Source of the DNA: Cyanidioschyzon merolae
Taxonomy: Eukaryota
Reading direction: 5' to 3' (one strand)
DNA length: 64,000 nucleotides
NCBI GenBank assembly: GCA_000091205.1
Contig: AP006501.2
Below the pieces are notes generated by a model, which searched no databases, had not been told where the DNA came from, and saw only the letters and a list, made by a program, of their open reading frames with translations. Made by a program: the position numbers and the translations under genes. This document shows positions 3,402-60,786 of this stretch, piece after piece. Every line of letters starts with the position of its first letter. Position 1 is the stretch's first letter.

Positions 3402-6400
3402 TTACAGATACAGACGAATTCGCGATGTGATGGTCACTCGACACATGGGACACTCCGAGAGTTGCTCTGCGCATGGTTGACAAGTACAGTGTCCACAATT
3501 GTAAACAGTCCATTGAACGCATGGACCAGAATCAGCACACACGGCACATTCAGGTTCCATGTGTGCTCGAGTGTTATCGGCTTCGATGCTATGCGTCGAA
3601 CGCATGATGTCGGACTCGTCTAGCACCAGAACGCTGTCTGCCGCGGAGCGTGAACTATCAAACGGTGCCGAAGGGGCAGCAGATATCTCGGAATAAATGT
3701 CGCTACTGCTGCTTGCCCTCGAGTGGTGGAGGAGGCGGGAATCCTCGTCCTGGTCGGCACCTTCGGTATCCAGCGGTGGTGCACTTGCAGTTGCAGTAGA
3801 GCGCACCGGCCACCAGTCTCTGCTCAAGAGCCGGGGTAAAAACGCTGAACGTCGGTAGCTGGACGGCTGCGCACCGCTCTGGCGAAGCGACGTCGGCAAA
3901 AGCGTATCACCGTCGTCACCAGATAGCGCCGTCAGCTGGTTATCGAGCGATACCTCATTCGCGGCGGCAGGAGCGCAAATCGATGATGACGATGACGACG
4001 TCGACGGCGACAAGTGCTGGTGCGCAGCGCTTGCGGTTCTCGTGCTCGCCGAGGTGAGCACAGTCGCGGTGATACCATAACCATCAACACCACCACCAGT
4101 TACTTCCACATGAGATGATGTTTCCATCGAGTCGCCACCGCTCTGTGACGTGCTCGCGTTGGTGATTTGGGAGAACAGCGCACTGTTGTTGCTCGGCGGC
4201 GCAGGTGCGTCATCAGCAAGTTGTTGTTGCATCACAAGCGGATCGCTCTCAGCAGACCTGTTGTACCTGAATTCCACCATTGAGTCCCGATAAATCGGTG
4301 CTGTACTGAGCGAGGTCATGCTGGACCCTGTCGAGCTGGTGCCCCGCGCAGCCGACGGGGTGCGTTTGCGCAACAGCGGCGGCTGTGTGCTCGACGAGGT
4401 GCCTGCGTTAGCCTCGAACACGCCTTCGAACGTCCGATCCCCAAGATGAATGCTCCGCTCGTAGGCAAACGAGTTGCCGGTTTTCGTATCGGGCGTCGTC
4501 GCGTCCATGTTCTTGTACACATGAGAAGCCGATGCCGTCGGCTTCGACGTTTCTCCCGCTGAAACACCGTCGACGACGCCCATGCGAGCGCTGTATGCCG
4601 CGGCAAGTCGATGATTAGGTTCCCCAGCCAGCGCTGGAAATGCATTCTCGCAACCCGCTTGCCGGGCCTGACGCGTCCCCAACAACGAGGTCAGCACAAG
4701 GTGCGCCTGCGTCTGGCCGGTTTCGCGGGCGATATCCAGCGGGGTCGCCCCGCGGCTGTCGCGAGCGTATACCAGATCGCCTCGGGGAGCACCGAGCTCC
4801 ACAAGCGCCCGTAGCACGCTTTCCTGGGCGCCAGCTGCCGCTGCGACATGAAGTGGCGTCCGTCGGCGTCGATCACGAGCCCAGGGGTTGCTGCCTGCTC
4901 GTAGCAGCGCGAGGACAGTTGCGGCACCTGCATCCTGCTGCGCCAGCGCACAAGCGTAGTGCAGCGGCGTCTCGCCTCGGGTACCAAGGCCAATGGTGGC
5001 CGTTTCGAGCGCGAGCGCCCCTTGTTGACCGCCCCCAACAGCTTGTACAAACGCCTCGACGCCCTCGGCGTTTGCAAGCGCTGCAGCGGTATGCAGCGGC
5101 GTTCCGCCGTCAAGCTTGCGCCGGATATTCACATCAATACCCAGTGACACCAGACGACGAATGCAGACAACTGTGGCAAGGAAGTGACGATCCGGGCTCT
5201 CGTCGAGAACGCCGCTCAGCACTGCAAGTGAGCGGAGCTGCGCCTCGACAAGCGCCGCTCCAGGCGGCCGCACAAGGGCCGTGTTATTGGTGCTGGTATT
5301 GGTATTGGGATTGTTCGCGATGCTAGACTCCCACCAGCGCGTCGCCAGATGATGCATCAGTTTCCGCCCGATCACGAGGCGGCGCTGATCTTGAGGCAAG
5401 CGGGCTCCAAGCTGGAGAAGCCACAAGGCGAGGTCATAACGCTTTGCTGAAAACGCGATGGTTAGCGCAGTTTCACCGCTGTGGCTCGCCTGATCGATGA
5501 GCTTCGTTGGTGACAATGAAACCAGCAGGTTGCAGATGTCGGCGCGATTGCAGGTCGCTGCTGTATGCAGAGCGGTACGACCGGCACAGTCTTGCTGGAA
5601 CGGTGAGACGCCCGCCTCGGTCACGAGCCATAAAACGATGTCCGAATGCCCATACCGAGCAGCAACGTGCAGCACAGACGTGCCGTCGTGACGCGCGATG
5701 CTAGGCTTCGTCTTGCCCTCTTCGACCAGGAGACGCAACGCGACGAGGTGGCCAAACTTTGCCGCTGCATGCAGGGGCGTCCATCCTTCACCATTTGCGG
5801 CGCTTGGATCAGCACCATGCTGTAAAAGAAGTCGAATCATCTCGATGGAACCCTGCTCAGCAGCAATGTGCAACGGCGTCCATCCGCGGCGGGCACGAAC
5901 GTGTTGTGGACGGATTTTGCCCACTTCCAGAAGCAACCCGACAATCCCCAGCTGGTTTCCAGACACCGCAACCATGAGCGGCGTCCAGTCGTTGTGGTCA
6001 CGAGCGCGCGGGTCCGCGCCCGCTGCAAGCAGCATCCGACAGACCGCTTCGTGCCCGTTCCACGCCGCGATAAACAGCGGCGTCCAGCCGATGCTCGTGC
6101 GGCAGTTCACATCGGGCGGCGGTGCCGACTGATTGCGCTGCTCTGGGGAACGATATCGCAGCATCGCACGCAAGGTCGCAATGTGATCATTTTGCGCTGC
6201 TAAATAGAGTGCCGACGGGATGGCTCTTTCGCTTTCATCGAGCGTTGTGCTGGGTACGTCTCCTCTGCGCACTAGGCTAGGAATCATGCCAGACCTTCGC
6301 GAATTGTCGGTCGGCCCCGTCGTCACAGCGAGCTCTTTCCAAGCACCGAACTCGAGCAGCAGCTCCACAGCAAGCGTGTTACCGAAATATGCTGCCTGCT

Positions 6401-7579: not shown

Positions 7580-8228
7580 CCCGGGTGCCGTGCGACGCCC
7601 ACGAAGTGATCTTTTTCGATAACAAGACGTTTATATGGACCATGGATCCTTTGTTGCTGGATCGGTAATGATATTCGAAAGAGCATCGATCGTAGTGATG
7701 CAGATCATTTCCAAGTTCCATTACTTTTACTTCCTTTCCGATATAATGGTCGTTTGTGCGTTTTCGCGTACCGCGAGTACCTGCAGTATGCATCCGCTTT
7801 AGCGCTTATAGCGCAGGTCAGGATACAGCACGGAGACAGAAGGGCTTTTCCGTACCACGAAGGGCGTCGGCTGGAGGTCTAGTTTGCCCGACACGGTGTT
7901 GGAGTCCATGATCATGCTGGGAGCCTGCAAGCTGCGCAGACGGACGCACTGCATGCGGCAGCGTGAATGGATATCGTAGGGGTCCACTACGACCAGGGCG
8001 AAACCTAAACGCAGATTACCTGCTCCTAGTCGCTGAAAGAACAGCGTTGCGAATGAGTTGCGCACATCTCTCCACAGCACCTGCCACTGGTCGGGAGCAC
8101 GAAGCACAAGCTCGGCTGACTCGTCCGGCTCGCGAGACCTTCGGCCTAGAGGGTAAACATTCGACAATATGGTAATCGTTTCCCCCGTTTAACGTATATC
8201 GTAACTGGGGAAATAAATTGGTATTGGA

Positions 8229-10167
8229 TTGCCAGATAGTAGTGAGTTTCGGTTCTTTGTTCGATACAGTGCGGTCGACAGGCGCACCTGGGAGATCTGG
8301 CAGTCACGAGGGAACGAAAGCCACGCAGATTACCGCCTCAACGGTACTCGATACAGAGATAACGGGGATATTTATGCCTGCGGGGCGATTGAGTGCGTCA
8401 CGTACCTGAAGAAACATTTGACCATGAACCCCGAACGTTTCATGATACGCTCCATCTTTGCACTCTACCCAGGTCTCGTTCGCAAAGGGATATGGATTAT
8501 CGTCGATGGCATCTTTAACGATAGTAAGAATGAAGAGAAGATCGAATTCGTCGACGAGAAGGCATCAAGCAGGCGAAGGAATGAGGCTTCTGTAATCTGT
8601 GCGGCTGTTCAAGAGCATCGTGAAGTCTTGGGGCTGGCCAATCCAACAGAAGAGATATCAGAGTTGAAAAACGATGAAGAAAGATACCATCCCCTCATCC
8701 TGTGCTATTTCGTGTTTTTGGACGGAGAACTCGAACGCGAGTCCGAAACGGAGCTGGGCGTGCGGAAAAATGAACTGTCGGAGAGACGAAAGGCTCCGCT
8801 TCTGGGGAACCACGTCAGTGTCGTTCCGTTATACAGCATCAACTCGCACGTTGTGTCTATCAGTTCCAGAGTCCTTCATGGCATTATCAGGGAGATCTGT
8901 TCGGAATTCAGCGTAAGCAGGGAGGAGTTCACCGGCGAAAATCGGGAGACGTACTGGAAGAACATCTTCGATTCCAGACGTCAGAAAGTTAGCAAGCAAA
9001 AGGTATTTACTGGGATGATCGAAACCGATGGGGTAGCCATTTGTGTACACCATCGACACTTGAAGGTGGATCGTTCTATTATGTCTTCGGCTTCGCCCGT
9101 GACGACGAATGAAGATGAGAAGGGGGCGGGTCCTGCGACGCAGAAAGTGCATAAAAACGACTTTGTCGTTGGTGCGGCGAAGCATGAAGATGAGAAGGAG
9201 GCGGCTCCTGCGACGCAGAAAGTGCATAAAAACGAGTTTGTCGTTGGCGTGGACCCTGGGACTACGAATATCATAACCATCGCAGAATCCAAGCGTGCAG
9301 AAGATGGTATTTACGGCAACCTACGTCAGAAAGACATGCGTCTGTTGAGGTTCTCGAGAGCGAGATAGTATCGAGAATCGGGAAACATGAATGCGAGGAA
9401 GAAAATTGCTGCATGGAATGCAGGAATGAAGGAGCACCTGGAAGCTATGAGCAAGGTGACGAGCCGCGGAGCGGACTTTGACGCTTTTCGGGAGTTCATG
9501 GAAGTTCGCATTGCGCATTGGGATGCGCTGTGGGAGGAGTATACAAAGCCCCGGTGGGCTCGTTTGCGTATGAACCTGTACTGCGGGAGGCAGCGTGCAT
9601 TTGCGAATTTTTTCAATGCGTTGAGCGCCTTGAAGGAGGACGAAAGTCAGAGGCTCGTAGTAGCGTACGGAGCAGGGCGCTGGAAGACCCAAAAAGGGAC
9701 TAGGCCAGCTCCAACGACAAGAACGTACAAGGAATGTGCACGGCGTTTTGCTACGATACCGATCGATGAGTTCCGAACATGGTATACACACCATGAACTG
9801 GGGCGTACAATTCAGAGGGTCAAGATGGAAACGTGTCAGCGGAGCCCTGAGGATATAGCAAAGTACGGACCGCTGACGGAGGAGCAAATGGAAAGGCGAG
9901 CGAAAGTGCGAGGGCTACTTACATCAGTAAGTACAACCAACGACGGCAAGAAACGTATGGAGTTTGGGAATCGTGAATTTTAACTCCGCTATCAATATAA
10001 AGAGATGTGCGGTGATGGAAACAAGACCTCCGGCGTTGACACGAAGGAGTTTTGTGGGACAACCTCTCAAAGTGGAACTATATGAGAAAAAATTGAAGCC
10101 AATTGTAGGTAGCCAATCCAAAAAAGCGGGGAGGCGTCTGCACCTCAGTTGGAGACGTTTTATCTGA
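8229..10167 (+). pseudogene. TnpB/Fanzor-like RuvC nuclease gene, disrupted (in-frame TAG at 9366-9368, frameshift near 9975)
   Basis: RuvC-I-like motif [15 protein letters not shown] in ORF 8229-9368. RuvC-III-like motif NREFNSAINIKRCAVME spans the 9387-9983 and 9964-10167 ORFs. A degenerate zinc-finger region lies between them. The overall order matches TnpB. Confidence 0.65.
9111..9260 (+). repeat. Tandem 75-bp duplication (2 units) immediately preceding and including the RuvC-I strand
   Basis: The units are gaagatgagaagg(g/a)ggcgg..cctgcgacgcagaaagtgcataaaaacga(c/g)tttgtcgttgg.. repeated. Translated, they are [25 protein letters not shown] and [25 protein letters not shown]. The same duplication is present in copy B at about 42583-42732. 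Confidence 0.7.
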
Positions 10168-10255
10168 AGCGCGTTTGCCGCCACTACCGCATACCGCTGC
10201 GGCCAGTGTTTTTCTTTTGAGAGACGTTTGTTTTCAGGGGTGCTGTCCCTAGCAT
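10168..10255 (+). ncRNA. Conserved non-coding tail 3' of the Fanzor-like ORF; candidate omegaRNA scaffold / right-end sequence
   Basis: About 75 nt directly after the stop are conserved between copy A (gcgcgtttgccgccactaccgcataccgctgcggccagtgtttttcttttgagagacgtttgttttcagg) and copy B (43629-43695, gcgccggtcaccactactttgcactaccgaccacagcgtttttctttagaaaggcgttttttgtcgg). The similarity ends abruptly afterwards. Confidence 0.3.
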
Positions 10256-10292: not shown

Positions 10293-11306
10293 ATGGACGA
10301 GGAGGTTGGTTCTGCTCGCGATGGCGACGTTACGGCACTGCTCCGTGAGAGCTATGCGCTCCTACATCAGGCGACGCTCGTGACCGCGGACGAGCGGCGG
10401 AAGTGCGCAGAGGCATTCACAGAGTGGGCATTGTCAACACATCGGTCAACGCCCGCAGGCACTGGGACACCAGCCTCAGGGGGTCACAGCCGTCTGGAAC
10501 CAACCCGCTCAGTCGAGGGGTTAGTTCCCGTGCTCAGGCGTCAAAATTCTTTACCGAGAAACGTAGGACTTGGGCGCGGCGTACGCCCACAGCAGAGCAG
10601 CAGACGTGTCCGGCTCCGAGGTCGTGGCAACGGTGACGGCTCGCCGCTTCAGGAACGCTCGGCACACGGGGCGCAACCGCCGCGAGCCTTGGAGCAAGCT
10701 TCAGAGTCTGATAGCTTCATCAGCGACACTGGGGCCCAGAGCGACCATGACACTTCCAGCTACGAGAGCGACTCGAGCGCGGTTTCCGCGGGCGTGCGCA
10801 TACCTAGAAGGAACGACCCCGGTTTCACTGCAACGCGCCCCTGCAGGGCGGAGACAGTGCACCAGCGACGTCTCCCGCACGCACCAGCATTGCGTACTAC
10901 GAGCGCTGTCGCAGCACAGCGTGGGTACAGCACACCTGACCAGCGGCAAGTGCCGTCGGATCGAGGACGAGCCTACAACGCCGCCCGCGAACTGCGTCCA
11001 GCAACGTTGCTTGAGGATTTCGCAGCCGCAGGTGACTCTCTGGGGACGACGCAAGCGGAGAATGCTCGCGCAGCAGCCGCAGCAGTGCAAGCGCCGGCAG
11101 CACTGGCGGCAAATCCCTCCATAGAATGTCTCGCACGAAGGCGCCAGTTGCCTGGACTTGACGTCGGATCAAGCGCGCTGGATGAGTCTGCGCCGCCAGC
11201 AACCAGAACAGTTTCTCTCGGTGCTGACTGGCTCCTGGCGAGTTTTACGGGCGCTAGCTCCAGCTCGTATGTGGACAAGAGCCCAAGTCGTCACTTGCCG
11301 CGATAG
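10293..11306 (+). CDS. Hypothetical protein, largely low-complexity/disordered
   Basis: ATG-initiated 337-aa ORF whose N-terminus looks plausibly protein-like (MDEEVGSARDGDVTALLRESYALLHQATLV...). No recognisable domain. A chance ORF in GC-rich DNA is possible. Confidence 0.25.
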   Translation: MDEEVGSARDGDVTALLRESYALLHQATLVTADERRKCAEAFTEWALSTHRSTPAGTGTPASGGHSRLEPTRSVEGLVPVLRRQNSLPRNVGLGRGVRPQQSSRRVRLRGRGNGDGSPLQERSAHGAQPPRALEQASESDSFISDTGAQSDHDTSSYESDSSAVSAGVRIPRRNDPGFTATRPCRAETVHQRRLPHAPALRTTSAVAAQRGYSTPDQRQVPSDRGRAYNAARELRPATLLEDFAAAGDSLGTTQAENARAAAAAVQAPAALAANPSIECLARRRQLPGLDVGSSALDESAPPATRTVSLGADWLLASFTGASSSSYVDKSPSRHLPR

Positions 11307-13164
11307 AGGTGCGCACGCCTGAGCATCGCACCGGTGCAACCTAGGCCTGGTCCGAGAACACGAGCTTACCTCTGCGTCGGAGTTGAGCGCTTGCCCACAT
11401 ACGACTGCGGTGCTCTACATGGGCATAATATGCCGCAGACAGGGACCAAAATCGTTCCAAACATCAATGTAGCTTGTTCGGTTGCTGTGGTGCCGCGCGA
11501 CAAGGCGACGTCGCTATCCGGCTCCTTCGAGGCCCTGGCAGTCTGGGCGTTTACGCAGACGCAGCATTTTCTTCGATGGATGGGAACAGATGTGAAACGC
11601 CTTTGCGATCGCGGTGTGGACTCTCGTCGAGCGCCTGTGTGATGTCGAAATCGTGCATGCTGGAGCGCATGCATTGGCTCGTGCTGCTGAACGCATAGGA
11701 GCGCCTTTGGCGTAAAACACTTTGGAAAAGGAGTCGATGACGCTTTCTTTTCTTCGAATCAGTCGTCTAGATGAGCGTGGCGGCATCGGCTGCGACCTGC
11801 AACCGGTTCAGGCTCGTGGTCGCTGCAGTGCGACCGGCTGGAATGCCAGACACCCTTCGAGCGTGCTCAGCGCTGAACTTTTCAGCGCCGGTGCTGCCAA
11901 CATCGCGTGTACCTCTGTCAGAAACGACAAATACCAACGCGCCCAAACATCTGCAAAGCTCCTATCCTGAGGCGGGACTATTACAGAGGAGTTGCTCAAT
12001 GAGGTCCGGAGAGGGCGGCTCCAGCGGTGGTAGCTGCAAGTGCGCTGCGCGCAGGCTGATCCAATGGCAACAGGTTTCGTGTCCGACAGCGTCGCTACAG
12101 TCGCGCAGGCAAACCAGGTGCTGGTCCCGACACACGTCGTACTCGCGAACGTAGACCGCCTGCCAAACCCGCAGCCGTGCCAGCCAGAGATGCAGATGCT
12201 GTCCAGTGAGCGACTGGCGCTCCAGCGGACGTACCACCTCCGGGCCCGATGCGGCCTGCCTCGAACCTGGAGGAGTAGCGACGACCGCTGATCCGTTCGA
12301 GGGCGCCAGGGGCACCGGCGCGCACCCTGCGGCGCGTCCACCAGGCGCGCAGTGCGCTGCTGCTGATGAAGCGTCCGCGTTCGACATGCGTACGCGGTTC
12401 TTGCGGCAGAAAACGCGTTTGGGTCGGCAGTGCCCCAGGGCATGCTCGGCGTGGAGCAACTCGTCACGGGATACGTGCCCCCATTTTACGAGCGCGCTAG
12501 CCCGATGGCTGCATGAGCGCGAGCAGTACCGGCCCGCGCCGAACGTGCCTGCATGCATCGTTCCGCAGACAACACATGCACGGCTACCTGGCCCAAGACG
12601 CGGAAGCCTGCGTCCACGCGCTGCTGCTGGGGCGCGTGCTGTACGCTTCCGCTGCTTTTCGCGATGTTTCCGCGGCTGCTTGCGCCGGTTCTCCATGGGT
12701 GCTGGTGCAGAGCTCTGCTGAGAGTGCGTCGGAGAGGCCCCGGCGACGAACCAGATGTCGCGTTCAACAGCATCGCACAAGCTTTCATCCTGATAAGCAT
12801 CCAACCATTGTTCCACTGGAGTCTGATCTGTAATGGGCGTTGCACGTGACATATGTGAATCCTATAGAAGACAAAACACAGGAAGAGATACGCGCGCGCG
12901 CTCGGAACCTGCATGTCGTCCGCAGGGGTGCACGCATGTTGTGCGCGTCACGGATCGTGCTGTGATGGCGCCATCTGCGTGTAGATTGCGAACGTGACAT
13001 ACGGATGATACGCTTTCAGCTCAATTGTATTCCGCATACGTGTGTGTGTGTGTCATGAAATGCTTTTTCATTGTGTACGGCAGATGCCATGAAACTGGGA
13101 TCATTTGGTGAAATAAAGTCTTAGGGAGGGGTACGGACATCAAAGTCGGGGATCCTGGAGAACC

Positions 13165-13615
13165 CGGCGTTGCCGGCTGCCAGAAAAACAAGGGAAGAAT
13201 CGTCATTTTGTCGAGTATCGAGCGAAGAAGAGCAAGTGAAGGAAAAGACGCAGAGGGGAAATATGCGAGAAAAAGTGTTTGCCCGACATGACGGTGACGA
13301 GACTCCAAAGGTACAGAGAGCGCGAATTCTAGCAATCCTTGCACTGGTTTGTTGAAATAGAAGCATGAAACGCAAGAAGTTGGTGAAGCTAGACGTCAAC
13401 GCCACAATCAATACAAGACAGTGTGCTTTGCTGAAGACGAGATCCGCGGAGCTGAGGCGGTCCAGCTTCGTGGGACATCCTCTGATACTCGAAGCGGGCC
13501 TGGAGAGAAAGTGAAGCGGATACCACGCGGCAATTCAAAAGAGGCTGAGAGGCGTCTGCGCCTCGGTATTCATTTATCCTCCATGTTCGTGATCTATTCT
13601 TTGTTTCATTGACAT
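13165..13615 (+). mobile_element. Internally deleted (MITE-like) derivative of the Fanzor-like element
   Basis: The 5' part matches copy B at 41240-41340 (gccggctgccagaaaaa...). The 3' part matches the C-terminal end of the gene and the tail: DVNATINTRQCALLKTRSAELRRSSFVGHPL corresponds to NREFNSAINIKRCAVMETRPPALTRRSFVGQPL, and ggaggcgtctgcgcctc matches. About 2 kb of internal sequence is missing. Confidence 0.55.
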
Positions 13616-19236: not shown

Positions 19237-20759
19237 CGAACAGAACACTGTACGCAATTGGGTGGATACAGCTCCTGGACACCGGCGAAGAACCTGACGA
19301 GAAACGTGCACAACGATTTGGATGCGGGGCAGCGCATTTGCAGCTCGCTGCATCTGTGCGAGCGCTGCAGTGCGCTTGGATTCGAGAAGCGGTGCGGCGC
19401 TCTGCGATATCAGGTACGGTACACCGGGGTCTTGGTGTCTCCCAGCGTCAAGTGAATGGTGAAAGATTCATATCCCGAGTGTCGCACGTACCTGCGTTGA
19501 GACAGGATCGCTCAGCAGCAGTGGGAGCACCGAGCATCGACATCGTGCAAGTTGTCTTCGGCGCCCGTGTTGCCAGATACAAGTGTACTCTGACGTGTGC
19601 TCCGCATGGACCATGCACAAATGTTTGGAGTGGTATAGCGTACATGGAGTCAAGGGAACGACGCTGCCCGCATTCATATGGAAAGCGTGTTTTAGAGGAG
19701 TGCAGCTGAAAAGGCACCGAGGCATACGCAGTTCTGTGTGTTGCTTACTGGGATGCGTCGCAGGGCTCCGTACCGCATGGCGTATTCTTGGAGATATTCG
19801 GACAAGTATATTTTTTCTCAGCATGTCATGCAGAGATCGTGACGTCACAACATACGCTGAGATATTCTCTATATCAGCATTTGCACAGTAGATAGGTTAA
19901 GAGAGATCTGCGTGATGAAAAGCAGCTCTACGTATTCTTGTCGTCAGCATTTGCGCAGTAGGGTATTCTAGGTGTATAAAAAAAGAACAGAAAATAACCT
20001 CTAACTGGCAATGCGACAACAGTGTCGCTCGACCTCTGTGGTAAGCGTTGAAAGAGGGAAAGGTTTCTATATCTTCGAAAGTTTACCCTCCAGGCAGAAT
20101 GTCCCGCGAGTCGGACGAGTCTGCCAGACCAGTGCTTCATGCTCTCCCTCAGTTGCGGGCGCTGTTGTGAGATCTACGCAGCTTGTCCGCAGCGCAGTTT
20201 ATTCTGGGACTTGGAGCGGGTAGCGTGCTTTTAGGCTTCGCCCTGGTCGCAGTGGACTCCTAGTGGATCGCTTCGCGCTGCCGCAGGCAGGGCGTCTATC
20301 TGCGAAGCTTGCAGGCTCCCAAAATGATTCTGTACTCAGACACCGTGTCGCGCAAACTACGCCTCGGGCCGATGTCGTCAGTGGTACGGGAAAGCCGTTC
20401 TCTCTCGGTGAAGCATCCGCAACAGCGGTTTGTGCAGCGATCGCGGACGATCACAGCAGGCACTCGGCACACAAGAGAACATACGAAACGACCAGTATAT
20501 CCGAGAATAACTATAAGTAATGGAAGTCCGAGGTAGGTGCAGCTTCATAGAAACTTTCCCGAAAGCCAGTATCCATCGATCCTGCAATCTGGGGTCTACG
20601 GTCAATGGATACCATGTTGTTGATTGAGAAAAACGGCGACCTCCTGGTCGCCACCAATACATTCAGAGCGTTCTCGTGGACTACACTTTACAGTGGACTC
20701 AGCGTTTCTATAAACACCAGGCTTGATCCGATTTGGTTCCACATTTGCATGGGTCTCTC

Positions 20760-25824: not shown

Positions 25825-26352
25825 ATCTCAGGCGCTTCAGCCGCGATGATGATTGTCTTCTTTTCCGATGACACAACACATTCACAGTGACCACGGATTC
25901 CAGACTTCGAACTGGATATTGACATTCGGGAAAGCGTCCATCATGTTGCCACACCTTACCTCCAAGTTCTATGATGCATACTTTCTTTCGGACGTGCTGG
26001 TCGTTTTTGTGCGTCCTATCGCGCGCCTAACCCTCTTTGAGCACCCGCCCCAGCACCTAATCCGCCAGAGCAGATACATCATGGAGACAGAACCGCTTTG
26101 CCATACCACGGACGATATCGTCTCGATGGTGCGGAAACCGAGGCGGTTTCCATTGGCCCGCACCCAGGTTGCAGCGGGTGCTGTTCTTCAATAAAATTGG
26201 ACCCAAGGCAACGCGTTCACTTGCAGATGAAAATTAAGTTTAGATCGCGCATAGGGATCCGAGACCTCGACCCATGCCTCGGAATCGTCCAGATCAAACA
26301 GAGTGAGCGGTGCATGGGCCCGCGGTGGTGCCAGCGCGTTCTTACCGCCGCG

Positions 26353-39965: not shown

Positions 39966-40382
39966 AAGAAGTGCCTTTCTGCGGAACACTGCGAACTGTT
40001 ATGGGTCCATGCGTCCACGCTGCACACGACCGTCGGTAGGACACGTGGCTGCACCGCGTTCCCCGTTCCAGTCCGGTCGATGCGGTACCGTCAACAACCG
40101 CACTGGAGACGTGCTCTTCCAGAGTTCTACCTACGCGTAAACTAAGACCGCGGCGGGTACGTGCGCTTCTTATGGACCCTCTGTGGGTACCCGGCAGAAC
40201 TCGCTAGCGGTCGGGTAACGAGCGCACCACTGCTACGGCTCCTGTACAGGGGCTTCGGCGACGGTGCCTGCGCACTCTCTTTTCTTTTCGCTCACCAAAC
40301 GTTTATGTTGTACCTGGATCCCTTATCGCGGGACGAGAACTGGCTATCGGGAAAACGCCCATCGTGATACGCCTCACCCTCA

Positions 40383-43300
40383 AGTTCCATTCCTTACAAT
40401 TCCTTTCGGATGTACTGGTCGTTTCATAGGTTGTAGCGAGCATCGAGTGCCCGTCGTGCTGCATCCACCTTGGCGCCTAGACAGCTGGTGCAGATGCACC
40501 TTAGAGACAGAACGGCTTTGCCGTACCACTGGGGGCTTCGGCTCGAGATGTGGTGCACCTGACACGGATTCGGAGTCCATCATCATGCTGGGGGCCTGGA
40601 AACTGCGCTGAAAGAGCTACCGTCTGCGGCAGCTCGAAGCGACATGCCGGGAGTCCACTGCGACCAGGGCGACGCCCAGACGCAGCCTAACTGCTGCTCC
40701 TAGTCCCAGAGTCGACTGCGTTGCGGACGAGGTGTTCAGGTCGCACCACTGCACTAGGCACAGGTAAGGGCGTGAAGCACTAGTCTTGCAGACTCGTTCG
40801 GATTGCGGGACGTTTCGCCCTGAAGGCAAACTTTCGAAAGTATGGAAACCTTTTCGCCCTTTTAACGGCTACCGTGGAATGGGACAGGAATCGTTACATC
40901 GTTTCTCGTGAATCGTTCGTCTCTTTCCTTTTTTTCTCCGAATAGCGCGGTCGATAAGCACACCTGCGAGATCACGCAGTCACGAGAGACGACGCGCATG
41001 TCGCCGATGAAGGGAAACGCGTTTCTAACTATGCTCTGACCTATTGCCCTACCGTACATGTTGTATTCGAATTACAGGCGTAGCGGAGTACAGTTTTTTG
41101 AGTTCAATCGCGTTTGAAACGTCAAGTAAGCATATTCAAGTGATGCTGTGCGGTGTATAGGAGAAGCGTTCAATGTGCGTTCTTTCGCAGAAAAAATTCT
41201 AAAAAAGGAAAGTTATGAGAAAGCAAGTCGACGATCGCGGAGGCGCAGTGTCGCCGGCTGCCAGAAAAAGAACGAAAAACGGTGCCGAGCCCAGGAGCAC
41301 AGGCAAAGACGATGAAGCAGAAGCGGGAGGCCCTACGTCAAAGGCCGCGGGAAAGACAACAGTACGACGAGACGGTGGTGAAAGCGTACCTTCGTAAACA
41401 TATCAAGGATGCCTACAAGGAAAAGTTGCGAGAGGCCATCAGAAACCGTGTCGAGTCGTACTCCACGAGTACGAAGAAGGCTTCGTCAGGACTGATGCAT
41501 ATGATGAACGAGATGCACGACAACGCGACGGACACCAGAACAGTCGAGGTTCCGGGGGAATTTTTCAACAAGACCTTTGCTCGTCACCTGATGGTCGGCA
41601 CAGGGGAGCCGTCGACAAACAATGAGCGAGTGCACGCCTTCCACGAAAACTTCGCGGGATTCGGCTTCGAAGGTGCATCGATACAAGGGTTACGGGGATA
41701 TTCACATCTACGGGCCGATCGAGTACCTCGCGAACCTGAGGAACCATTTGACCATGAACCTCGAAGGTTTCATGATAAGCGCCGTGTTTGCGCTCTACCG
41801 GGGCCTCTCTCGCGGGGAAGAGATGGGCCATCTTCGCTGCCATCACCAACGATCGTCAGCATGAACAGGCAATAGAATTTGTCGACAAGATGACATCACG
41901 CAGGAGCATGAATGAAGCATATGTGATCGGTGCAGCTATTCAAGAGCGTCGTGGTGACACGGAGGTAGGGGGTTGGATAGATACTTCACCTCGCACTGAA
42001 AAAATATCACAAAAAGTAAGGAAAGTAAAATGCGCATAATCGGAGAACGCTGGCCCAAGTAAACGTTTTGTCCATGGAAAAAAAGAGCATCGTGAAGTCT
42101 TGGGGCTGGCCAACCCGACAGAAGACGTGTCAGATATGAAAAAAGTGAGAAAAGATGGTACCCCCGCATCCTGCGCTACTTCGTGTGTCTGGACCGAGAA
42201 CTCGAACGCAAGGCGGAGATGGTGCTGGGTGTGTGGAAAAATGAAGAGTCGCGGAGACGGAACGCTTTCCCAATGGGGAAGTGCTTCAACGTGGTTCCAA
42301 TGAGCAACATCAAGTCACATTTTGTGACTATCGACCAAGGCGTCCACTACGGCAACATGAGTGAGATCAGTCCGGTGTTCGGTGTCAGCAGGGAGGAGTT
42401 CACCGGTGAAAATCGGGAGACGTACCGGAAGAGTCTCTTCGGTTTCAAACGTCTCAAAGTGAGCAAGCAGAAGGTATTCACGGGGATGATCGGAACCGAT
42501 GGCGTAGCCACGTGTGTACGCTATCGGAGGTTTGAAGGCGGATTGTCCAGTTCGGCCTTCGATATCGCCCGTGACGAAGCATGAAGAAAACAGGGAGGAG
42601 GATCCTGCCACACAGAAAGTGCAGGATAACGACTTTGTCGTTGACGCGACGAAGCGTGAAGATGAGATGGAGGCGGGTCCTGCTACGCAGAAAGTGCAGG
42701 ATAACGACTTTGTCGTTAGTGCGGATCCCGGGAACACAAATATCATAACCATCGCAGTACCCAAGCGTGCGGAAGATGGTATCAACGGCAACCTACGTCA
42801 GACGGCCCTGCGAGTTTTAAGGTTCTCGTGAGCGGGATGCTATCGAGAATCCGGTATGATCAATGCGAGGAAGAAAATTGAGACACGGAATGCAGGAATG
42901 AAGGATCACCTGGAAGCTTTGCGCGGAGTAACGAGCAGAGGAGCAGGCTTTGAAGCTTTTCCGATATTCATGGAAGGTCGCGTTGCTCATTGGGATGCGC
43001 TGCTGGAGGAGTATACAAAGCCCCGGTGGGCTCGTCTGCGTATGAATCTGTACGGTGGTAAGCAGCGGGCATTCGCCAAATTTTTCAGTCAGTTGAGTGC
43101 CTTGAAGGAGGACGAGAGCCAGAGGCTGGTAGTGGCATACGGAGCAGGGCGTCCACAAAAGGGTGCACACCAGCTCCGTCGACGAGAACGTACAAAGCGT
43201 GTGCACGGCGCTTTGTAATGATACCGATTGATGAGCTCCGAACGTCCTATACACACCACGAACTGGGGTGCACACTTGAGACGGTCGACATGGAAAAGTG

Positions 43301-43695
43301 CCAGCGGAGTCCTGAAGATATGAAAAAGTATGGAGCGCTAACGGAGGAGCAAATGGACAGGAGGGCGAAAGTTCGTGGACTACTCGCATTAGTAAGTACA
43401 ATCAATGGCAAGAAACGCATGGAAATTGTTAACCGCGACTTTAACGCGGCTACCAATATAAGGAGGTGCGCGGTGATGGAGAGAAGACCTCCGTACTTGA
43501 CAAGAGGGAATTTTGTAGGGAAACCTCTCGAGGTGGAATTATACGAGAAAAAGTTGAAACCGGTAGTAGGTGGCCGGTCCAAAAACACTGGGATGCGTCG
43601 ACAAGTCTGTAGAAGACTTTTCGTCTAGGGCGCCGGTCACCACTACTTTGCACTACCGACCACAGCGTTTTTCTTTAGAAAGGCGTTTTTTGTCG
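40383..43695 (+). mobile_element. Fanzor-like element, copy B: 5' module plus full-length but frameshifted nuclease gene plus conserved 3' tail
   Basis: Homologous to copy A along its whole length. It has an extra ~630-bp N-terminal coding segment (41010-41640) that is absent from copy A. Confidence 0.6.
41215..43628 (+). pseudogene. TnpB/Fanzor-like RuvC nuclease gene, disrupted (at least 5 frame changes and an in-frame TGA at 42829-42831)
   Basis: The N-terminus is basic and NLS-like (KQKREALRQRPRERQ...). The RuvC-I motif is [15 protein letters not shown] (42514-42831) and the RuvC-III motif is NRDFNAATNIRRCAVMERR (43218-43628). The coding sequence is split over ORFs 41282-41875, 41622-41864, 41788-42039, 42183-42584, 42514-42831, 42856-43218 and 43218-43628. 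Confidence 0.65.
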
Positions 43696-46323: not shown

Positions 46324-47680
46324 CCGCGTAGAATGAAACTGGAACAATGTTCCGCTCGCTCTGCACTCGTCTTGCGATTTGATTCGCAAAAGTTCTTGGA
46401 TGCACAGCATCGATACGCCAAGTGCAGCAACAACGGCTTACGGACTCAAACGTAGTTTTCGGGATTCTCGGTCGGGCGTTTTTCTCTCGGAGTGACCTGT
46501 TCGTCGTCCATTCACCGCTGGAATGCGTTCCGTCGCCAGATTCATGTTGAGTCGCGCCACCCTCGAACCAGCGTCCCTGGCATAACCTATTTTATGATCG
46601 AATGCATTGGGGCAAGCATCCATTCTTCTGATTTTTTCAAGTATGGGATGCTCAAATCGCGCATTCCTCAATATGTCGTATCTCTATGTTTCGGGGCCAT
46701 TGGTGGATGCAGCGATTCGCGGCCCCGGATTCACGACGGCTCAAGAGACGCGATGTCGTCTCCTGGACGCTTGTGCACCAGCTGATGCCCAGAGTTCGCC
46801 GCAATGGTCTCAGGTCAAACGATCGCTTCCGTTCGAAGCACGAGTCCGCCGCTCTGCACGGCTATCGACGAAACATCGTCCGGCAGCAACACGAGCCTCT
46901 CACGGGATATGCATTCGAAGGCTCCCATCGCTTTCATTTGCATGAACAGCGGTCTTGGACTCGGAGTCGAGACGTCGCAGGAATCGCGGCCAGTGGAGCG
47001 CTCGGTACCGTACGGCACGAGCGGGACGTTGACGGATCCAAGGCGTTTTGGCCTGCTTGCCGGCCTGGACTTGACGCTTACGGTACTTGTTGCACGGTGG
47101 ACGGCATCGCGTTCCCTAAACCCTCCTTCGGATGGAACGCGCTGCACTTGCGCGTGCAGCGCACACCGTACTCGCCGATGCGATCTGCCCTGACTAGCGC
47201 CCGTGATCGTAGCGTACGGCACCGGGCGCGGAAACGGCGGAGCGCATACAGGGGATCCCGCGGTACCCGTCAAGACCGTGTATCGAGCGATGAAGCGCGC
47301 CTTCAGATGACGCAGTGCAGGGTGTGGCGGAGAACGTGCCGCGCGCACACAGGAACTCGTGATACGAGTCAGGAGTCACGGCTGCACCCCAGGAAGGCTC
47401 GTGAATCGCAACTTGCGCCTGTACATGAAGTGCGTCGACGATACCGGGGAGCTGCGAAATCGGGACGTGCACGTTGGCCTCAACATCGTTCAACAGCTGA
47501 CGTCGGAGCTGGATGTGCGGGAGGTACCGGCGTTTATCACTCTGCAGGGAATTCGGAGAAAAGAAAGAGGCAGGCACAGAAAGCGCACGACGACGACGCA
47601 TGGATACGTAGCAATCGGAAGAATCGGGAAAGATAGGTTGTGGGCGCGAGATTCACCTCGTGGACCTGTCAAGATACATA
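46324..47680. repeat. Left arm of a 1.35-kb, ~99% identical inverted repeat
   Basis: Reverse-complement identity with 51523-52880 was checked directly on several stretches. Identical 316-aa ORFs (46686-47636 on plus, 51566-52516 on minus) differ at 2 residues. Confidence 0.85.
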
Positions 47681-49304: not shown

Positions 49305-50114
49305 TCAGATTCCAACAACCGGTGCATCTGCCTGCGCAGTCTCCGCCTGGAGTGAGGCGGCCCCGCTGATCGCCGCGCCCTGCTCGAGACGAACGCCAGT
49401 ATCTTCGGGAGCATCGCCATGCACTTCCATGAGCTTGGTCAGGTCAAACTTCGGAGCTCGAATCAGTTTGCATTTGCGAATGTATACGTTTTGTAAGGGA
49501 TAAATGTTTTTGCATGCCTTTTCGATCTCCTTCCCAATAGCCTCTGGAATGATATTGGCAACGAAATCTCGTAGAGTGCCCTTCGATGTCTCTTGGACCA
49601 TGATATCCACCATCTTCTTCCGGATGGCGCGCTCCTGTGACTTTTTGCAGTAGCTTGTTTTTCGAATCTGCCCCTGCCGCCGCTTTGTGAAACCAATACA
49701 GAACAGACGCAAAACGTAGTCATCCAAGGTCTTCACATCGACATGAGCTTCGATGGTGGTCTGCCACTTTCGCATCATCGAAGACAGCTTATCGCGCGTA
49801 AAGTCGAAACCATAGAACTGTGTCAAGCAGTTCCGTCCCTGAACATCCTCGCAACGAAGCTTGATCTTGCGATATGCGAGGTCTTCATCTTTCTGCAGGT
49901 CCGCCAGTGAGATCTCGAAGACACGTCCTTTGAGTGACTCCGATGCTATTCGAGTGCCAGAGGTTTTCGACACGATTGTCTTTCCCGCCTGTCGGACAGA
50001 AAAGTAGGAGGGCGCCTTCACGTCATACCACTCCTTGCGGGAGTAGGGATCCAATATCTTTTTCTTGCTTCCCTTCTTTCCCTTGGAGAGACGCTTGTTC
50101 TTGCCCTGGGCCAT
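49305..50114 (-). CDS. RPS3A: 40S ribosomal protein S3a (eS1)
   Basis: [38 protein letters not shown]... is colinear with eukaryotic eS1 over 269 aa. ATG start, no interruption. Confidence 0.9.
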
Positions 50115-50639: not shown

Positions 50640-50800
50640 TCGGCGACACTAACTGTTTCGTATGCTCCATTGTACGCCGGGCCTTCACGAAGCGGTCTCA
50701 TGAGCGCCTAACAGCGCCTGTGCGGAGGTTGCTCGGAGACAGAACGGCTCTGCCGCACGACCGGGGAGGCCGGCTCGAGCATACATGTTTCATGAATGGC
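50640..50800 (+). mobile_element. Solo fragment of the Fanzor-like element 5' module
   Basis: agcgcctaacagcgcctgtgcggaggttgctcggagacagaacggctctgccgcacgaccggggaggccggctcgag is homologous to copy B 40470-40545 and copy A 7800-7875. Confidence 0.5.
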
Positions 50801-51522: not shown

Positions 51523-52880
51523 ATCAATCTTGACAGGTCCACGAGGTGAATCTCGCGCCCACAACCTATCTTTCCCGATTCTTCCGATTGCTACGTATCC
51601 ATGCGTCGTCGTCGTGCGCTTTCTGTGCCTGCCTCTTTCTTTTCTCCGAATTCCCTGCAGAGTGATAAACGCCGGTACCTCCCGCACATCCAGCTCCGAC
51701 GTCAGCTGTTGAACGATGTTGAGGCCAACGTGCACGTCCCGATTTCGCAGCTCCCCGGTATCGTCGACGCACTTCATGTGCAGGCGCAAGTTGCGATTCA
51801 CGAGCCTTCCTGGGGTGCAGCCGTGACTCCTGACTCGTATCACGAGTTCCTGTGTGCGCGCGGCACGTTCTCCGCCACACCCTGCACTGCGTCATCTGAA
51901 GGCGCGCTTCATCGCTCGATACACGGTCTTGACGGGTACCGCGGGATCCCCTGTATGCGCTCCGCCGTTTCCGCGCCCGGTGCCGTACGCTACGATCACG
52001 GGCGCTAGTCAGGGCAGATCGCATCGGCGAGTACGGTGTGCGCTGCACGCGCAAGTGCAGCGCGTTCCATCCGAAGGAGGGTTTAGGGAACGCGATGCCG
52101 TCCACCGTGCAACAAGTACCGTAAGCGTCAAGTCCAGGCCGGCAAGCAGGCCAAAACGCCTTGGATCCGTCAACGTCCCGCTCGTGCCGTACGGTACCGA
52201 GCGCTCCACTGGCCGCGATTCCTGCGACGTCTCGACTCCGAGTCCAAGACCGCTGTTCATGCAAATGAAAGCGATGGGAGCCTTCGAATGCATATCCCGT
52301 GAGAGGCTCGTGTTGCTGCCGGACGATGTTTCGTCGATAGCCGTGCAGAGCGGCGGACTCGTGCTTCGAACGGAAGCGATCGTTTGACCTGAGACCATTG
52401 CGGCGAACTCTGGGCATCAGCTGGTGCACAAGCGTCCAGGAGACGACATCGCGTCTCTTGAGCCGTCGTGAATCCGGGGGCGCGAATCGCTGCATCCACC
52501 AATGGCCCCGAAACATAGAGATCCGACATATTGAGGAATGCGCGATTTGAGCATCCCATACTTGAAAAAATCAGAAGAATGGATGCTTGCCCCAATGCAT
52601 TCGATCATAAAATAGGTTATGCCAGGGACGCTGGTTCGAGGGTGGCGCGACTCAACATGAATCTGGCGACGGAACGCATTCCAGCGGTGAATGGACGACG
52701 AACAGGTCACTCCGAGAGAAAAACGCCCGACCGAGAATCCCGAAAACTACGTTTGAGTCCGTAAGTTGTTGTTGCTGCACTTGGCGTATCGATGCTGTGC
52801 ATCCAAGAACTTTTGCGAATCAAATCGCAAGACGAGTGCAGAGCGAGCGGAACATTGTTCCAGTTTCATTCTACGCGGGT
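51523..52880. repeat. Right arm of the 1.35-kb inverted repeat (reverse complement of 46324-47680)
   Basis: See left arm. The inner boundary is ...ctcgtggacctgtcaagat on both arms. The outer boundary is ccgcgtagaatgaaactgg. Confidence 0.85.
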
Positions 52881-59869: not shown

Positions 59870-60090
59870 TCCACTCACAGGCACCCCGCAGCCTTTTTCG
59901 ACCAGCCCCCTGTTATCGGCTTCAGCTTCTCTCCGTACACTTCGAGCCCGAGAGGCTACCCCACGGAGTTGGATGGCGCCAGCTCCTCGGATCTCGTCTT
60001 CAGCACTAGACATCATCTCATCTTGATGGCGGCGTTGAAGTCTCGGTTCACAAACTCCTTGCATCCATTGCCGCTGGTGGAACACATTCA
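59870..60090 (-). mobile_element. Solo 3'-terminal fragment of the Fanzor-like element (minus strand)
   Basis: The reverse complement encodes STSGNGCKEFVNRDFNAAIKMR, a RuvC-III motif. It continues with homology to the copy A/B C-terminal coding and tail sequence (gctgaagccgataacagggggctggtcgaaaaaggctgcggggtgcctgtgagtgga). Confidence 0.5.
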
Positions 60091-60786
60091 TGCAAGGATT
60101 CCTTGAACTCGCGCCCTCTATGCCATTACAGTCTCGTAATCCTTCTATTGGGCAAACATATTTTTGTTTGCCTATCTCCCCTCCCCCTCTTCCTTTTCGA
60201 TATATGCTCTTCTTCACTCGTTAGTCGGCAAGAACAGAAACGTTTATGTGTTTTTCCTGCAGCCCGTAATGAAGGCCCTCCACCATCCCCGACTTCCATG
60301 TCCATACCTCTCCCTTGTATTTTTCATTTCTTCAAATGAACGTACTTCGAACACATCTGCTATAAACAGCGAATAAGCGTTTGATGATACGCTTCTTGAG
60401 ATGGAACCTAAATGAATCGAAAGAGTAGAGGAGCCAGACGGGTATGAGGTCGAAACTAATCTGAAACAATTTAGTATAAAATTTGCAACTGCGGTACGCT
60501 GGACCCCCGCGATCGCTATGAAGCGTTCCCCGAAATCATTTTCATACCAGTAATTCTCTTACTTTAACCAGAGGCCAGACTTGGCGCGGTACGAGATTCT
60601 CAGGCTCTTCCTCTAAGTTTCTCAGTGGAACAGGGACCGACGGCGTCACTGTTGCTGTTGCGGAAGAGTCCGAGCTCGTGCTTCGTCTGTGGCTTTCGGA
60701 CGCGAAACACTTGTTGCTAACAGGCAGCTCACACACACGCACAGGAGCGTACCAGTGCTCCGCGACGTACGGTGATACTCGACTGC

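Follow-up and report, generated by a model that had tools for sequence, protein, structure and literature searches.

What is the broken reading frame that occupies positions 8229 to 10167 of a 64,000-nucleotide stretch of nuclear DNA from Cyanidioschyzon merolae (contig AP006501.2; hereafter 'the window', to which all coordinates refer), and is it a host gene, a sequence of foreign origin, or the relic of a mobile element? An initial annotation, prepared by reading the sequence, regarded the interval as one copy ('copy A') of a gene for a homologue of the eukaryotic nuclease Fanzor, carrying the RuvC motifs that are typical of TnpB and Fanzor proteins, and assigned it to a family that has been mobile in this genome. 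The analysis described here leads us to conclude, with a probability of roughly 94%, that the region from about 7612 to 10228 is a single decayed insertion of the non-autonomous, Fanzor1-coding transposable element family CMe-1A of C. merolae. The homology of its protein to Fanzor1 in both sequence and fold, the conservation of D/E/D catalytic residues across the family, the nature of the element as a multi-copy repeat and its location in a eukaryotic nucleus are demonstrated below, while RNA guidance, cleavage and the identity of an omegaRNA may be extended to the CMe-1A family by analogy with characterised relatives.

Sequence and structural evidence for a Fanzor1 protein

The relationship to Fanzor1 emerged from comparisons that used the wider protein family. 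A word-indexed search returned 63 close homologues, all of them from JGI/ENA metagenomes and many tagged DUF8286 (a precomputed tag, PF26935, of which no mention was found in the literature), and an exhaustive profile search of 1.84 billion representative sequences, with a threshold of E<=1e-3, recovered 1,792 relatives, of which many are 600-750 amino acids long. When a profile built from an 86-sequence alignment of this family (A2; residues are numbered here according to one homologue, P0002) was compared with the PDB, it identified three Fanzor1 proteins of known structure, that of Parasitella parasitica with E=8.6e-22 (9cf0), that of Spizellomyces punctatus with E=1.5e-14 (8gkh) and that of Guillardia theta with E=9e-8 (9cer), in alignments that paired DPG with DPN, DEFRT with DEYKT, and NRD with NRD. 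A profile of distant relatives, from which every sequence of the Cyanidiales had been excluded, aligned with the repaired translation of copy A (that is, copy A read across its stop codon and frameshift) with E=2.9e-121; the match covers profile positions 125-604 of 634 and requires no additional frameshift. The corresponding domain begins at nucleotide 8331 (profile position 125) and runs unbroken to 9977, and profile positions 574-604 then follow in a second frame, at 9979-10074.

The predicted structure of the family led to the same assignment. An AlphaFold model computed from a shallow alignment proved unusable (predicted local distance difference test, pLDDT, of 44) and was kept out of the fold search; a model (AF2) of P0002, a homologue that shares 61% identity with copy A and on which the fold comparison was made in its place, reached a pLDDT of 81.9 and a predicted template-modelling (TM) score of 0.81 when it was computed with the 86-sequence alignment. 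A Foldseek search of the PDB with that model gave seven significant matches (E from 1e-16 to 2e-13), all of them to Fanzor1: the S. punctatus structures (SpuFz) matched at E of about 1e-16 with target-normalised TM scores of 0.70-0.72, and those of P. parasitica (PpFz) and G. theta (GtFz) at 8e-15 to 2e-13. Next in order, at non-significant values (E>0.01), were Cas12i and Cas12f.

The catalytic residues of the clade are arranged as in other Fanzor proteins. Among the 86 aligned sequences the RuvC-I aspartate (D484) and a glutamate (E656) are each present in all 86, and the RuvC-III aspartate (D725) in 83. At the canonical RuvC-II site the clade reads A-(Y/F)-G, with an invariant glycine (G623) and in no sequence a glutamate; the invariant glutamate is found instead 33 residues downstream, in (V/I)DEFRT. 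The RuvC-I aspartate aligns with the DP(N/G) of SpuFz1 and PpFz1, and the alternative glutamate with DEYKTS of SpuFz1 and DEFRTS of PpFz1. The canonical RuvC-II glutamate has been lost in all Fanzors, such that this rearranged site constitutes a signature of the group (PMC10530073), and the site corresponds to that of SpuFz1, whose catalytic residues have been identified as D383, E541 and D606 (PMC10432273). In copy A itself the codons for the first two members of the triad (the RuvC-I aspartate, within a peptide encoded at 9240-9284, and the alternative glutamate) are intact, and the third is destroyed.

The claims of the initial annotation that concern protein identity fared well in these comparisons: the RuvC motifs are present and align, as DPG, DE(F/Y)RTS and NRD, with those of solved Fanzor1 proteins; its observation that a RuvC-II glutamate was not obvious, and might reflect a rearranged site, agrees with the sequence VVAYGAG at the canonical position and with the invariant glutamate of IDEFRT; and, with profile matches that became significant once the deeper family profile was used and a homologue model whose significant structural matches are to Fanzor1 only, the Fanzor call stands.

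A further property of the family is a variable insertion directly before the RuvC-I strand. In copy A this takes the form of a tandem repeat with a period of 75 nucleotides (1.9 copies, 95% matches by Tandem Repeats Finder), and among the homologues P0001-P0009 the corresponding 25-residue unit is present in two to about five tandem copies (P0002, P0006 and P0009 being examples). In the P0002 model this insertion, at residues 374-469, is the only long segment that is predicted to be disordered (pLDDT<50).

Decay of copy A and its occurrence in a second strain

Three open reading frames (ORFs) lie on the plus strand within the interval (8229-9368, 9387-9983 and 9964-10167), of which the first two share a frame and are separated by an in-frame TAG, and the third lies in the +1 frame. 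Homology to Fanzor begins only at about 8314-8331, so that the first 85-100 or so nucleotides of the interval as it was originally delimited (8229-8313) belong to a non-coding 5' module of the element, while the remainder was correctly taken to be Fanzor coding sequence. The motif cited as evidence of RuvC-III (N-R-E-F/N-S-A-I-N-I-K-R-C-A-V-M-E, 9969-10022) straddles the frameshift. Comparison with a full-length copy elsewhere in the window ('copy B') further indicated that about 650 base pairs of the latter (40990-41642), containing the start codon and the N-terminal 125 or so residues, have been deleted from copy A. Because it has lost that start codon and N-terminal region, carries the in-frame TAG, and has had its RuvC-III aspartate codon destroyed together with a shift of frame, copy A is unable to encode a nuclease: it is a pseudogene, or molecular fossil. 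The single stop and single frameshift that were originally described are thus both real, and the accompanying statement that the copy was 'probably inactive' was correct, if understated. Coordinates of these and other features are collected in Table 1.

Table 1. Features of copy A and of related sequences within the 64,000-nucleotide window
Feature	Position	Strand	Basis or remark
Copy A, whole insertion	~7612-10228	+	coding remnant as originally delimited, 8229-10167
5' non-coding module, TE-N2_CMe-like	7612-8313	+	5' terminus approximate
Fanzor1 coding remnant, part 1 (helical/REC-like and WED-like, through RuvC-I)	8314-9365	+	N-terminal ~125 residues gone
75-nt (25-residue) tandem duplication upstream of RuvC-I	9109-9247	+	Tandem Repeats Finder
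RuvC-I catalytic Asp codon (GAC, in VVGVDPG), intact	9252-9254	+	direct reading
In-frame TAG (Tyr codon in family consensus RARYYRESG)	9366-9368	+	
Fanzor1 coding remnant, part 2 (RuvC helical insertion, RuvC-II region, degenerate zinc-finger segment)	9369-9977	+	
Canonical RuvC-II position (VVAYGAG), no Glu	9657-9677	+	family columns
Alternative (rearranged) RuvC-II Glu codon (in IDEFRT), intact	9768-9770	+	invariant column
Disrupted RuvC-III Asp codon and 1-nt insertion, giving a +1 frameshift	9975-9981	+	comparison with second strain (L001)
C-terminal coding remnant, +1 frame, stop codon 10165-10167	9979-10167	+	profile and ORF 9964-10167
3' non-coding tail to element terminus; terminal hairpin 10208-10225	10168-10228	+	homology end in 55 copies
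Short divergent C-terminal Fanzor fragment (RuvC-III region)	13338-13466	+	profile positions 560-597, E=6e-6; tblastn, blastn
Solo 5' module, TE-N2_CMe-like, no Fanzor part	19979-20525	-	blastn
Copy B, full-length (~3.4 kb), same family, several frameshifts	~40280-43690	+	tblastn, blastn, profile
Short divergent C-terminal Fanzor fragment (RuvC-III region)	59968-60127	-	profile positions 551-597, E=9e-9; tblastn, blastn

The history of these lesions was clarified by a 6-kb metagenome contig (L001) representing a second strain, which is 99.26% identical in DNA sequence to the region of copy A over 5.4 kb, and which carries the identical insertion and the identical TAG. The RuvC-III codon is intact there, and the frameshift is missing: the contig reads AAT CGT GAC TTT AAC (NRDFN), whereas copy A reads AAT CGT GAA TTTT AAC. 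The deletion and the stop codon therefore predate the split between the two strains, and the loss of the aspartate codon and the one-nucleotide insertion are specific to the 10D lineage from which the window derives.

The same contig bears on the possibility that copy A has been domesticated as a functional host gene, for example as a truncated, Fanzor-derived DNA-binding protein expressed from 8229 or from 9387. The persistence of ORFs of 379 and 198 residues, the longer of which is 97% conserved in another strain, might be thought to favor such a function; however, the identity between the two strains is uniform over coding and non-coding sequence, so that the conservation is attributable to a recent shared ancestor and not to selection. 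Moreover, the longer ORF opens with a TTG (8229) that lies inside the non-coding 5' module, lesions fall at catalytic positions, one strain carries an extra frameshift, and NCBI annotates no protein at the locus, the matching proteins all being calls from JGI/ENA metagenomes. A host function for copy A is therefore considered very improbable.

The element family and its termini

A single Fanzor1 family, CMe-1A, was described from C. merolae by Bao & Jurka in 2013 (Mobile DNA 4:12; PMC3627910). According to that description CMe-1A is present in about 150 copies, some of them still intact, each about 80% identical to a consensus of about 3 kb; the element has no terminal inverted repeats (TIRs), its target-site duplications are undetermined, and its 5' 635 base pairs are 95% identical to a separate repeat, TE-N2_CMe, of which there are about 70 copies (PMC3627910). 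Copy A is a member of this published family, as judged by its organism, size, architecture and type of protein. Copy B is similar in length (about 3.4 kb) to the published consensus and likewise has no TIRs; the 5' module of about 600 base pairs also occurs independently in the window as a solo copy; and copies A and B are old and diverged, at 78% DNA identity to one another against the published value of about 80% to the consensus (PMC3627910). No substantive difference separates the two descriptions, copy A being simply an internally deleted, stop-containing and frameshifted member.

The abundance of related sequences, both in the window and at 75 loci in contigs from hot-spring metagenomes, bears out the view that this is a mobile, multi-copy family. 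Only one element (L006, identical to L002) among 78 related loci retains a nearly full ORF, covering profile positions 4-597. Across the RuvC region of 52 copies, first and second codon positions are nevertheless more conserved than third positions (for example 0.93/0.93/0.68), a pattern indicating that much of the divergence between copies accrued in lineages in which the protein was under purifying selection, and which thereby supports the argument of Bao & Jurka for a functional role of the protein in the element (PMC3627910).

Homology to more distant sequences allowed a further origin to be weighed, in which the locus would be the remnant of an integrated segment of a giant virus (NCLDV). 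Fanzors have been reported in giant viruses (PMC10432273), and six distant relatives (23-56% identity, partial matches) do lie on giant-virus bins or other IMG/VR contigs. Those matches, however, are much more distant than algal relatives such as the named protein PNH08370.1 of the green alga Tetrabaena socialis; the repeat unit is a single-gene element of about 3.4 kb, with host genes immediately on either side and none of viral type adjoining it; and dozens of copies are dispersed among contigs of the Cyanidiales. We regard a viral remnant as highly unlikely, and the locus as an insertion of CMe-1A.

The ends of that insertion were located by comparison between copies. Alignment of 17 5' ends placed the 5' terminus at about 7612 in copy A and about 40280 in copy B, and the limit of homology among 55 copies defined the 3' terminus sharply, at ...GAA(A/C)GGCGTT (about 10228 in copy A), so that the element extends approximately from 5' TTTTTC...GACAAAACGTTTA to ...GAA(A/C)GGCGTT 3'. 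No terminal inverted repeats link the two ends, and an inspection of copies A and B by eye, which was not systematic, revealed no target-site duplications.

Several additional observations concern these termini. In the TE-N2-like module the 5'-terminal sequence is TTTTTTC-NNNN-GA(C/A)AAAAC-GTTTA (about 7612-7640 and 40280-40305, as well as at the metagenome loci L030, L048 and L066), and in several copies it can form a hairpin between T-rich and A-rich arms (such as GTTTTTTTC...GAAAAAAC). This candidate hairpin lies on the same strand as that at the 3' terminus, which likewise takes the form TTTTTC...GAAAG. A pair of terminal hairpins on one strand recalls the ends of IS200/IS605 elements, and by that analogy would suggest that the element may be mobilised as a single strand, in an IS200/IS605- or HUH-like manner. 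At one metagenome locus (L048, about 3654-3800) some 55 nucleotides separate the 3' terminus of a Fanzor element from the 5' terminus of a further, identically oriented TE-N2-like element downstream. Tandem insertion, nested insertion, or a preference for targets close to element ends could account for this.

Neither the ORF lists nor the comparison of copies provided evidence of a second gene in the element. The lists contain no transposase ORF or TnpA within it, and an ORF on the minus strand of that 5' module (7799-8167; 255 residues in L002) was rejected as a candidate, since it is not conserved between copies. The 255-residue ORF of L002 (4832-5599, minus strand), which adjoins a related element, contains the motif H..C.C....ET..H....CP.W, a sequence that we take to resemble the zinc-binding tail of the reverse transcriptases of non-LTR retrotransposons; it is probably a fragment of an unrelated retroelement.

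Evidence weighing against the assignment, and the search for an omegaRNA

Several results count against the identification of copy A as a CMe-1A element encoding Fanzor1, and are considered together here. When the repaired translation was used as a single sequence, a search of Pfam gave no relevant match, the NCBIfam model guided_TnpB (NF040570) reached only E=0.067 (a score of 12.5 bits where 100 are required), and a phmmer search of the PDB returned nothing. A profile restricted to homologues from the Cyanidiales (A1) then missed all of the solved Fanzors, because that family is too narrow, and the profile was widened by means of the representative search described above; the assignment accordingly rests on a transitive profile and on the model of a homologue, rather than of copy A itself. 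The name CMe-1A was likewise applied through agreement with the published description, and not through alignment with the Repbase consensus.

The zinc finger presents a more specific difficulty. The regular expression (RegEx) used by Yoon et al. in 2023 to define the group includes CxxC...CxxC between the alternative glutamate and the RuvC-III aspartate (PMC10711439), and none of the 86 clade members has two CxxC motifs in that segment, which in most of them contains zero to two cysteines and in copy A reads HHELGR...C. The distance from DPG to the glutamate, 172 residues in P0002, also falls outside the 120-160 allowed by that expression (PMC10711439). Given that homology and fold both identify the clade as Fanzor1, these sequences appear to constitute a Fanzor1 lineage without a zinc finger, and not a non-member; failure of the regular expression leaves that homology unaffected.

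The weak similarity to bacterial models could alternatively be read as the sign of a prokaryotic TnpB of the IS200/IS605 or IS607 type, acquired through contamination or recent horizontal transfer. The sub-threshold guided_TnpB score would be compatible with that origin, as would matches of the relatives to the Pfam family Cas12f1-like_TNB, which also fall below threshold (E=0.002-0.011, 16-19 bits against a cutoff of 26.3). This possibility is effectively refuted, however, by the position of copy A among nuclear genes of C. merolae on a 1.28-Mb chromosome contig, by the occurrence of the same insertion and stop codon at the orthologous site of a second strain, by the fact that the best profile and structural matches are to Fanzor1 rather than to TnpB in an element that has no TnpA, and by the size of the protein, which at about 800 residues with a large N-terminal region is typical of Fanzor1, as opposed to the 400 or so residues of TnpB.

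The omegaRNAs of TnpB and Fanzor systems derive from the transposon end and can overlap the 3' end of the ORF (PMC10432273), and for the corresponding part of this element the evidence of such an RNA is weak. RNAalifold, applied to the last 220 nucleotides of 33 3' ends, predicted only a hairpin of five pairs just past the stop codon (-3.1 kcal/mol); the terminal 110 nucleotides gave a mean folding z-score of -0.69 (as compared with +0.34 for an upstream control, relative to shuffled sequences); conservation of the 3' tail falls below that of the coding region, to 0.73 and then 0.63, and shows no peak; and Rfam has no match at the 3' end of the element. A terminal hairpin of 7-11 base pairs does recur, ending 1-3 nucleotides before the terminus, and is predicted in about two thirds of the copies, but it surpasses shuffled sequences (p<0.05) in only 8 of the 33. 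It exists in two sequence types, CGTCGTTCGA-CTT-TCGAACGGCG and AACGTTTTTC-TTTC-GAAAGGCGTT, which differ by a double change from G-C to T-A, and G-U wobbles are used. As the sole surviving sign of an omegaRNA this hairpin provides a weak lead, and the 61-nucleotide tail that contains it in copy A is a candidate part either of an omegaRNA scaffold or of the transposon end.

These data also bear on a proposal in which copy A, although dead as a gene, would still act at the level of RNA: its 3' end (the end of the ORF together with the tail) would be transcribed as an omegaRNA-like scaffold, with the flanking sequence downstream of about 10228 serving as the guide, and this RNA would be used in trans by Fanzor1 protein from an intact copy elsewhere. 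Such a role would accord with the known derivation of omegaRNAs, with the sharp 3' terminus, with the retention of the terminal hairpin through a double change and wobbles, with the loss of the codon-position pattern in the last coding window (0.80/0.83/0.78), and with the survival of some intact CMe-1A copies (PMC3627910). Set against this, the consensus fold is weak, few of the hairpins exceed their shuffled controls, the tail is less conserved than the coding region, and Rfam offers no counterpart; we consider the proposal unlikely, and retain the reading of copy A as a decayed insertion.

Genomic setting and other copies in the window

The surroundings of copy A are those of a eukaryotic chromosome. 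Four ORFs of the window, each beginning with ATG, correspond exactly to proteins of C. merolae 10D, namely CMS174C (10293-11306), CMS518C, CMS509C and eS1; the CMS prefix denotes chromosome 19 of that strain. Neighbouring ORFs encode an ankyrin and RING protein, an SGF29 tudor domain, a TPS-TPP fusion, a PP2C and a eukaryotic DDAH, and the description of the locus as a eukaryotic Fanzor in a nuclear chromosome is upheld. The GC content of the copy A element is 0.50, compared with 0.57-0.61 in its surroundings.

Copy B aligns with copy A in three blocks by blastn (7712-8313 with 40381-40989, at 70% identity; 8314-8622 with 41643-41953; and 8611-10235 with 42083-43694, at 78%), and profile positions 5-602 can be recovered from it across four frame segments, with positions 5-122 at 41303-41653. 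Metagenome copies are 75-83% identical to copy A. Copy B also contains a foreign insert of about 123 base pairs (41961-42083), missing from other copies, that corresponds to the reverse complement of the 5'-terminal 120 or so base pairs of a TE-N2-like variant (L002, 4401-4518); the same piece is found at 11 other metagenome loci, and as a miniature version of the 5' end it may be mobile in its own right.

The earlier count of five copies or fragments in the window requires some adjustment: two long copies (A and B) and two short C-terminal fragments are present, and the fifth is a solo 5' module, to which two weak scraps can be added. That module is 73% identical to copy A (7716-8261) and 72% identical to copy B (40385-40873), and the scraps, at 25926-26109 and 50736-50779 (both on the plus strand), are 69% and 82% identical, respectively, to the 5' region of copy B. 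The regions containing the short fragments (13143-13466, plus strand, and 59968-60373, minus strand) share no more than 65-71% identity with copies A and B, and have in common a 3' tail unlike that of either copy, TATT(C/A)ATTTA(T/C)CC...CAT(G/A)T..., features that are suggestive of a further Fanzor1 subfamily, older than the first and with its own type of 3' end.

The window also contains an inverted duplication of 1.28 kb, at 99.6% identity (46400-47675, plus strand, and 51527-52802, minus strand). The two arms, which lie on either side of the eS1 gene (49305-50114), each carry a gene of 316 residues, CMS509C in one arm and its twin in the other; their near-identity suggests either recent duplication or ongoing gene conversion.

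Implications and comparison with known systems

As an act of discovery these results add little, given that a publication of 2013 had already described CMe-1A, the Fanzor1 protein that it encodes and how abundant it is in C. merolae, and that Fanzors were established as RNA-guided nucleases in 2023. Their more immediate use lies in annotation, in that an unannotated interval between the ankyrin-RING gene and CMS174C can now be described as a CMe-1A Fanzor1 pseudogene together with a 5' TE-N2-like module. What they contribute to the published picture are approximate termini, the absence of the zinc finger throughout the clade, the variable 25-residue repeat, and evidence of selection from codon positions; such novelty as remains, in the missing zinc finger, the repeat, the termini and the hairpin, is suggestive.

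By homology, an intact element would express a single gene, whose product is a Fanzor1 protein of the eukaryotic branch of the TnpB/Cas12 superfamily. If it acts as do the characterised Fanzor1s, this protein would bind an omegaRNA transcribed from the region of the transposon end, the guide portion of which would direct it to complementary DNA beside a short target-adjacent motif; cleavage would then be carried out by a single RuvC site, composed of the aspartate of RuvC-I, the relocated glutamate of DE[F/Y]RTS and the aspartate of RuvC-III. Because the clade has no zinc finger, a variable and disordered 25-residue repeat, and ends that carry candidate same-strand hairpins in place of TIRs, it may further be imagined that these Fanzor1 proteins of the Cyanidiales and green algae form a mechanistically distinct sub-lineage, and that the nearly intact hot-spring gene (L006/L002) encodes an RNA-guided nuclease adapted to a hot and acid habitat. 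We attach a small chance to this, and mention it tentatively; on that understanding the hot-spring copy is a candidate for a thermotolerant editor.

Compared with prokaryotic TnpB (of the IS200/IS605 and IS607 elements, part of the OMEGA systems) and with Cas12f, the family shares a core of RuvC fold and belongs to the same superfamily; as with TnpB, its gene occupies the 3' part of a mobile element whose right end is presumed to supply the guide RNA. The two differ in that no significant direct sequence match connects them, in that the family protein is about twice the size of TnpB and has a relocated glutamate, and in that its element has no TnpA partner and inhabits a eukaryotic nucleus.

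The closest structural comparison is with the solved Fanzor1 proteins, which are SpuFz1 (8GKH, 9CEU-9CEZ), PpFz (9CF0-3) and GtFz1 (9CER-T). RNA-guided cleavage by the present family would be an extension from characterised Fanzor1 proteins. All three retain the CxxC...CxxC zinc finger that is missing from this clade, and are unlike it with respect to the variable tandem-repeat insertion before RuvC-I; SpuFz1 elements, moreover, are bounded by 30-nucleotide inverted repeats (PMC10432273), of which the present element has none. Despite a sequence identity of only 12-15%, the solved proteins and the family encoded by CMe-1A have in common their overall fold, the order of the DPG, DE[F/Y]RTS and NRD motifs, and the loss of the canonical RuvC-II glutamate.

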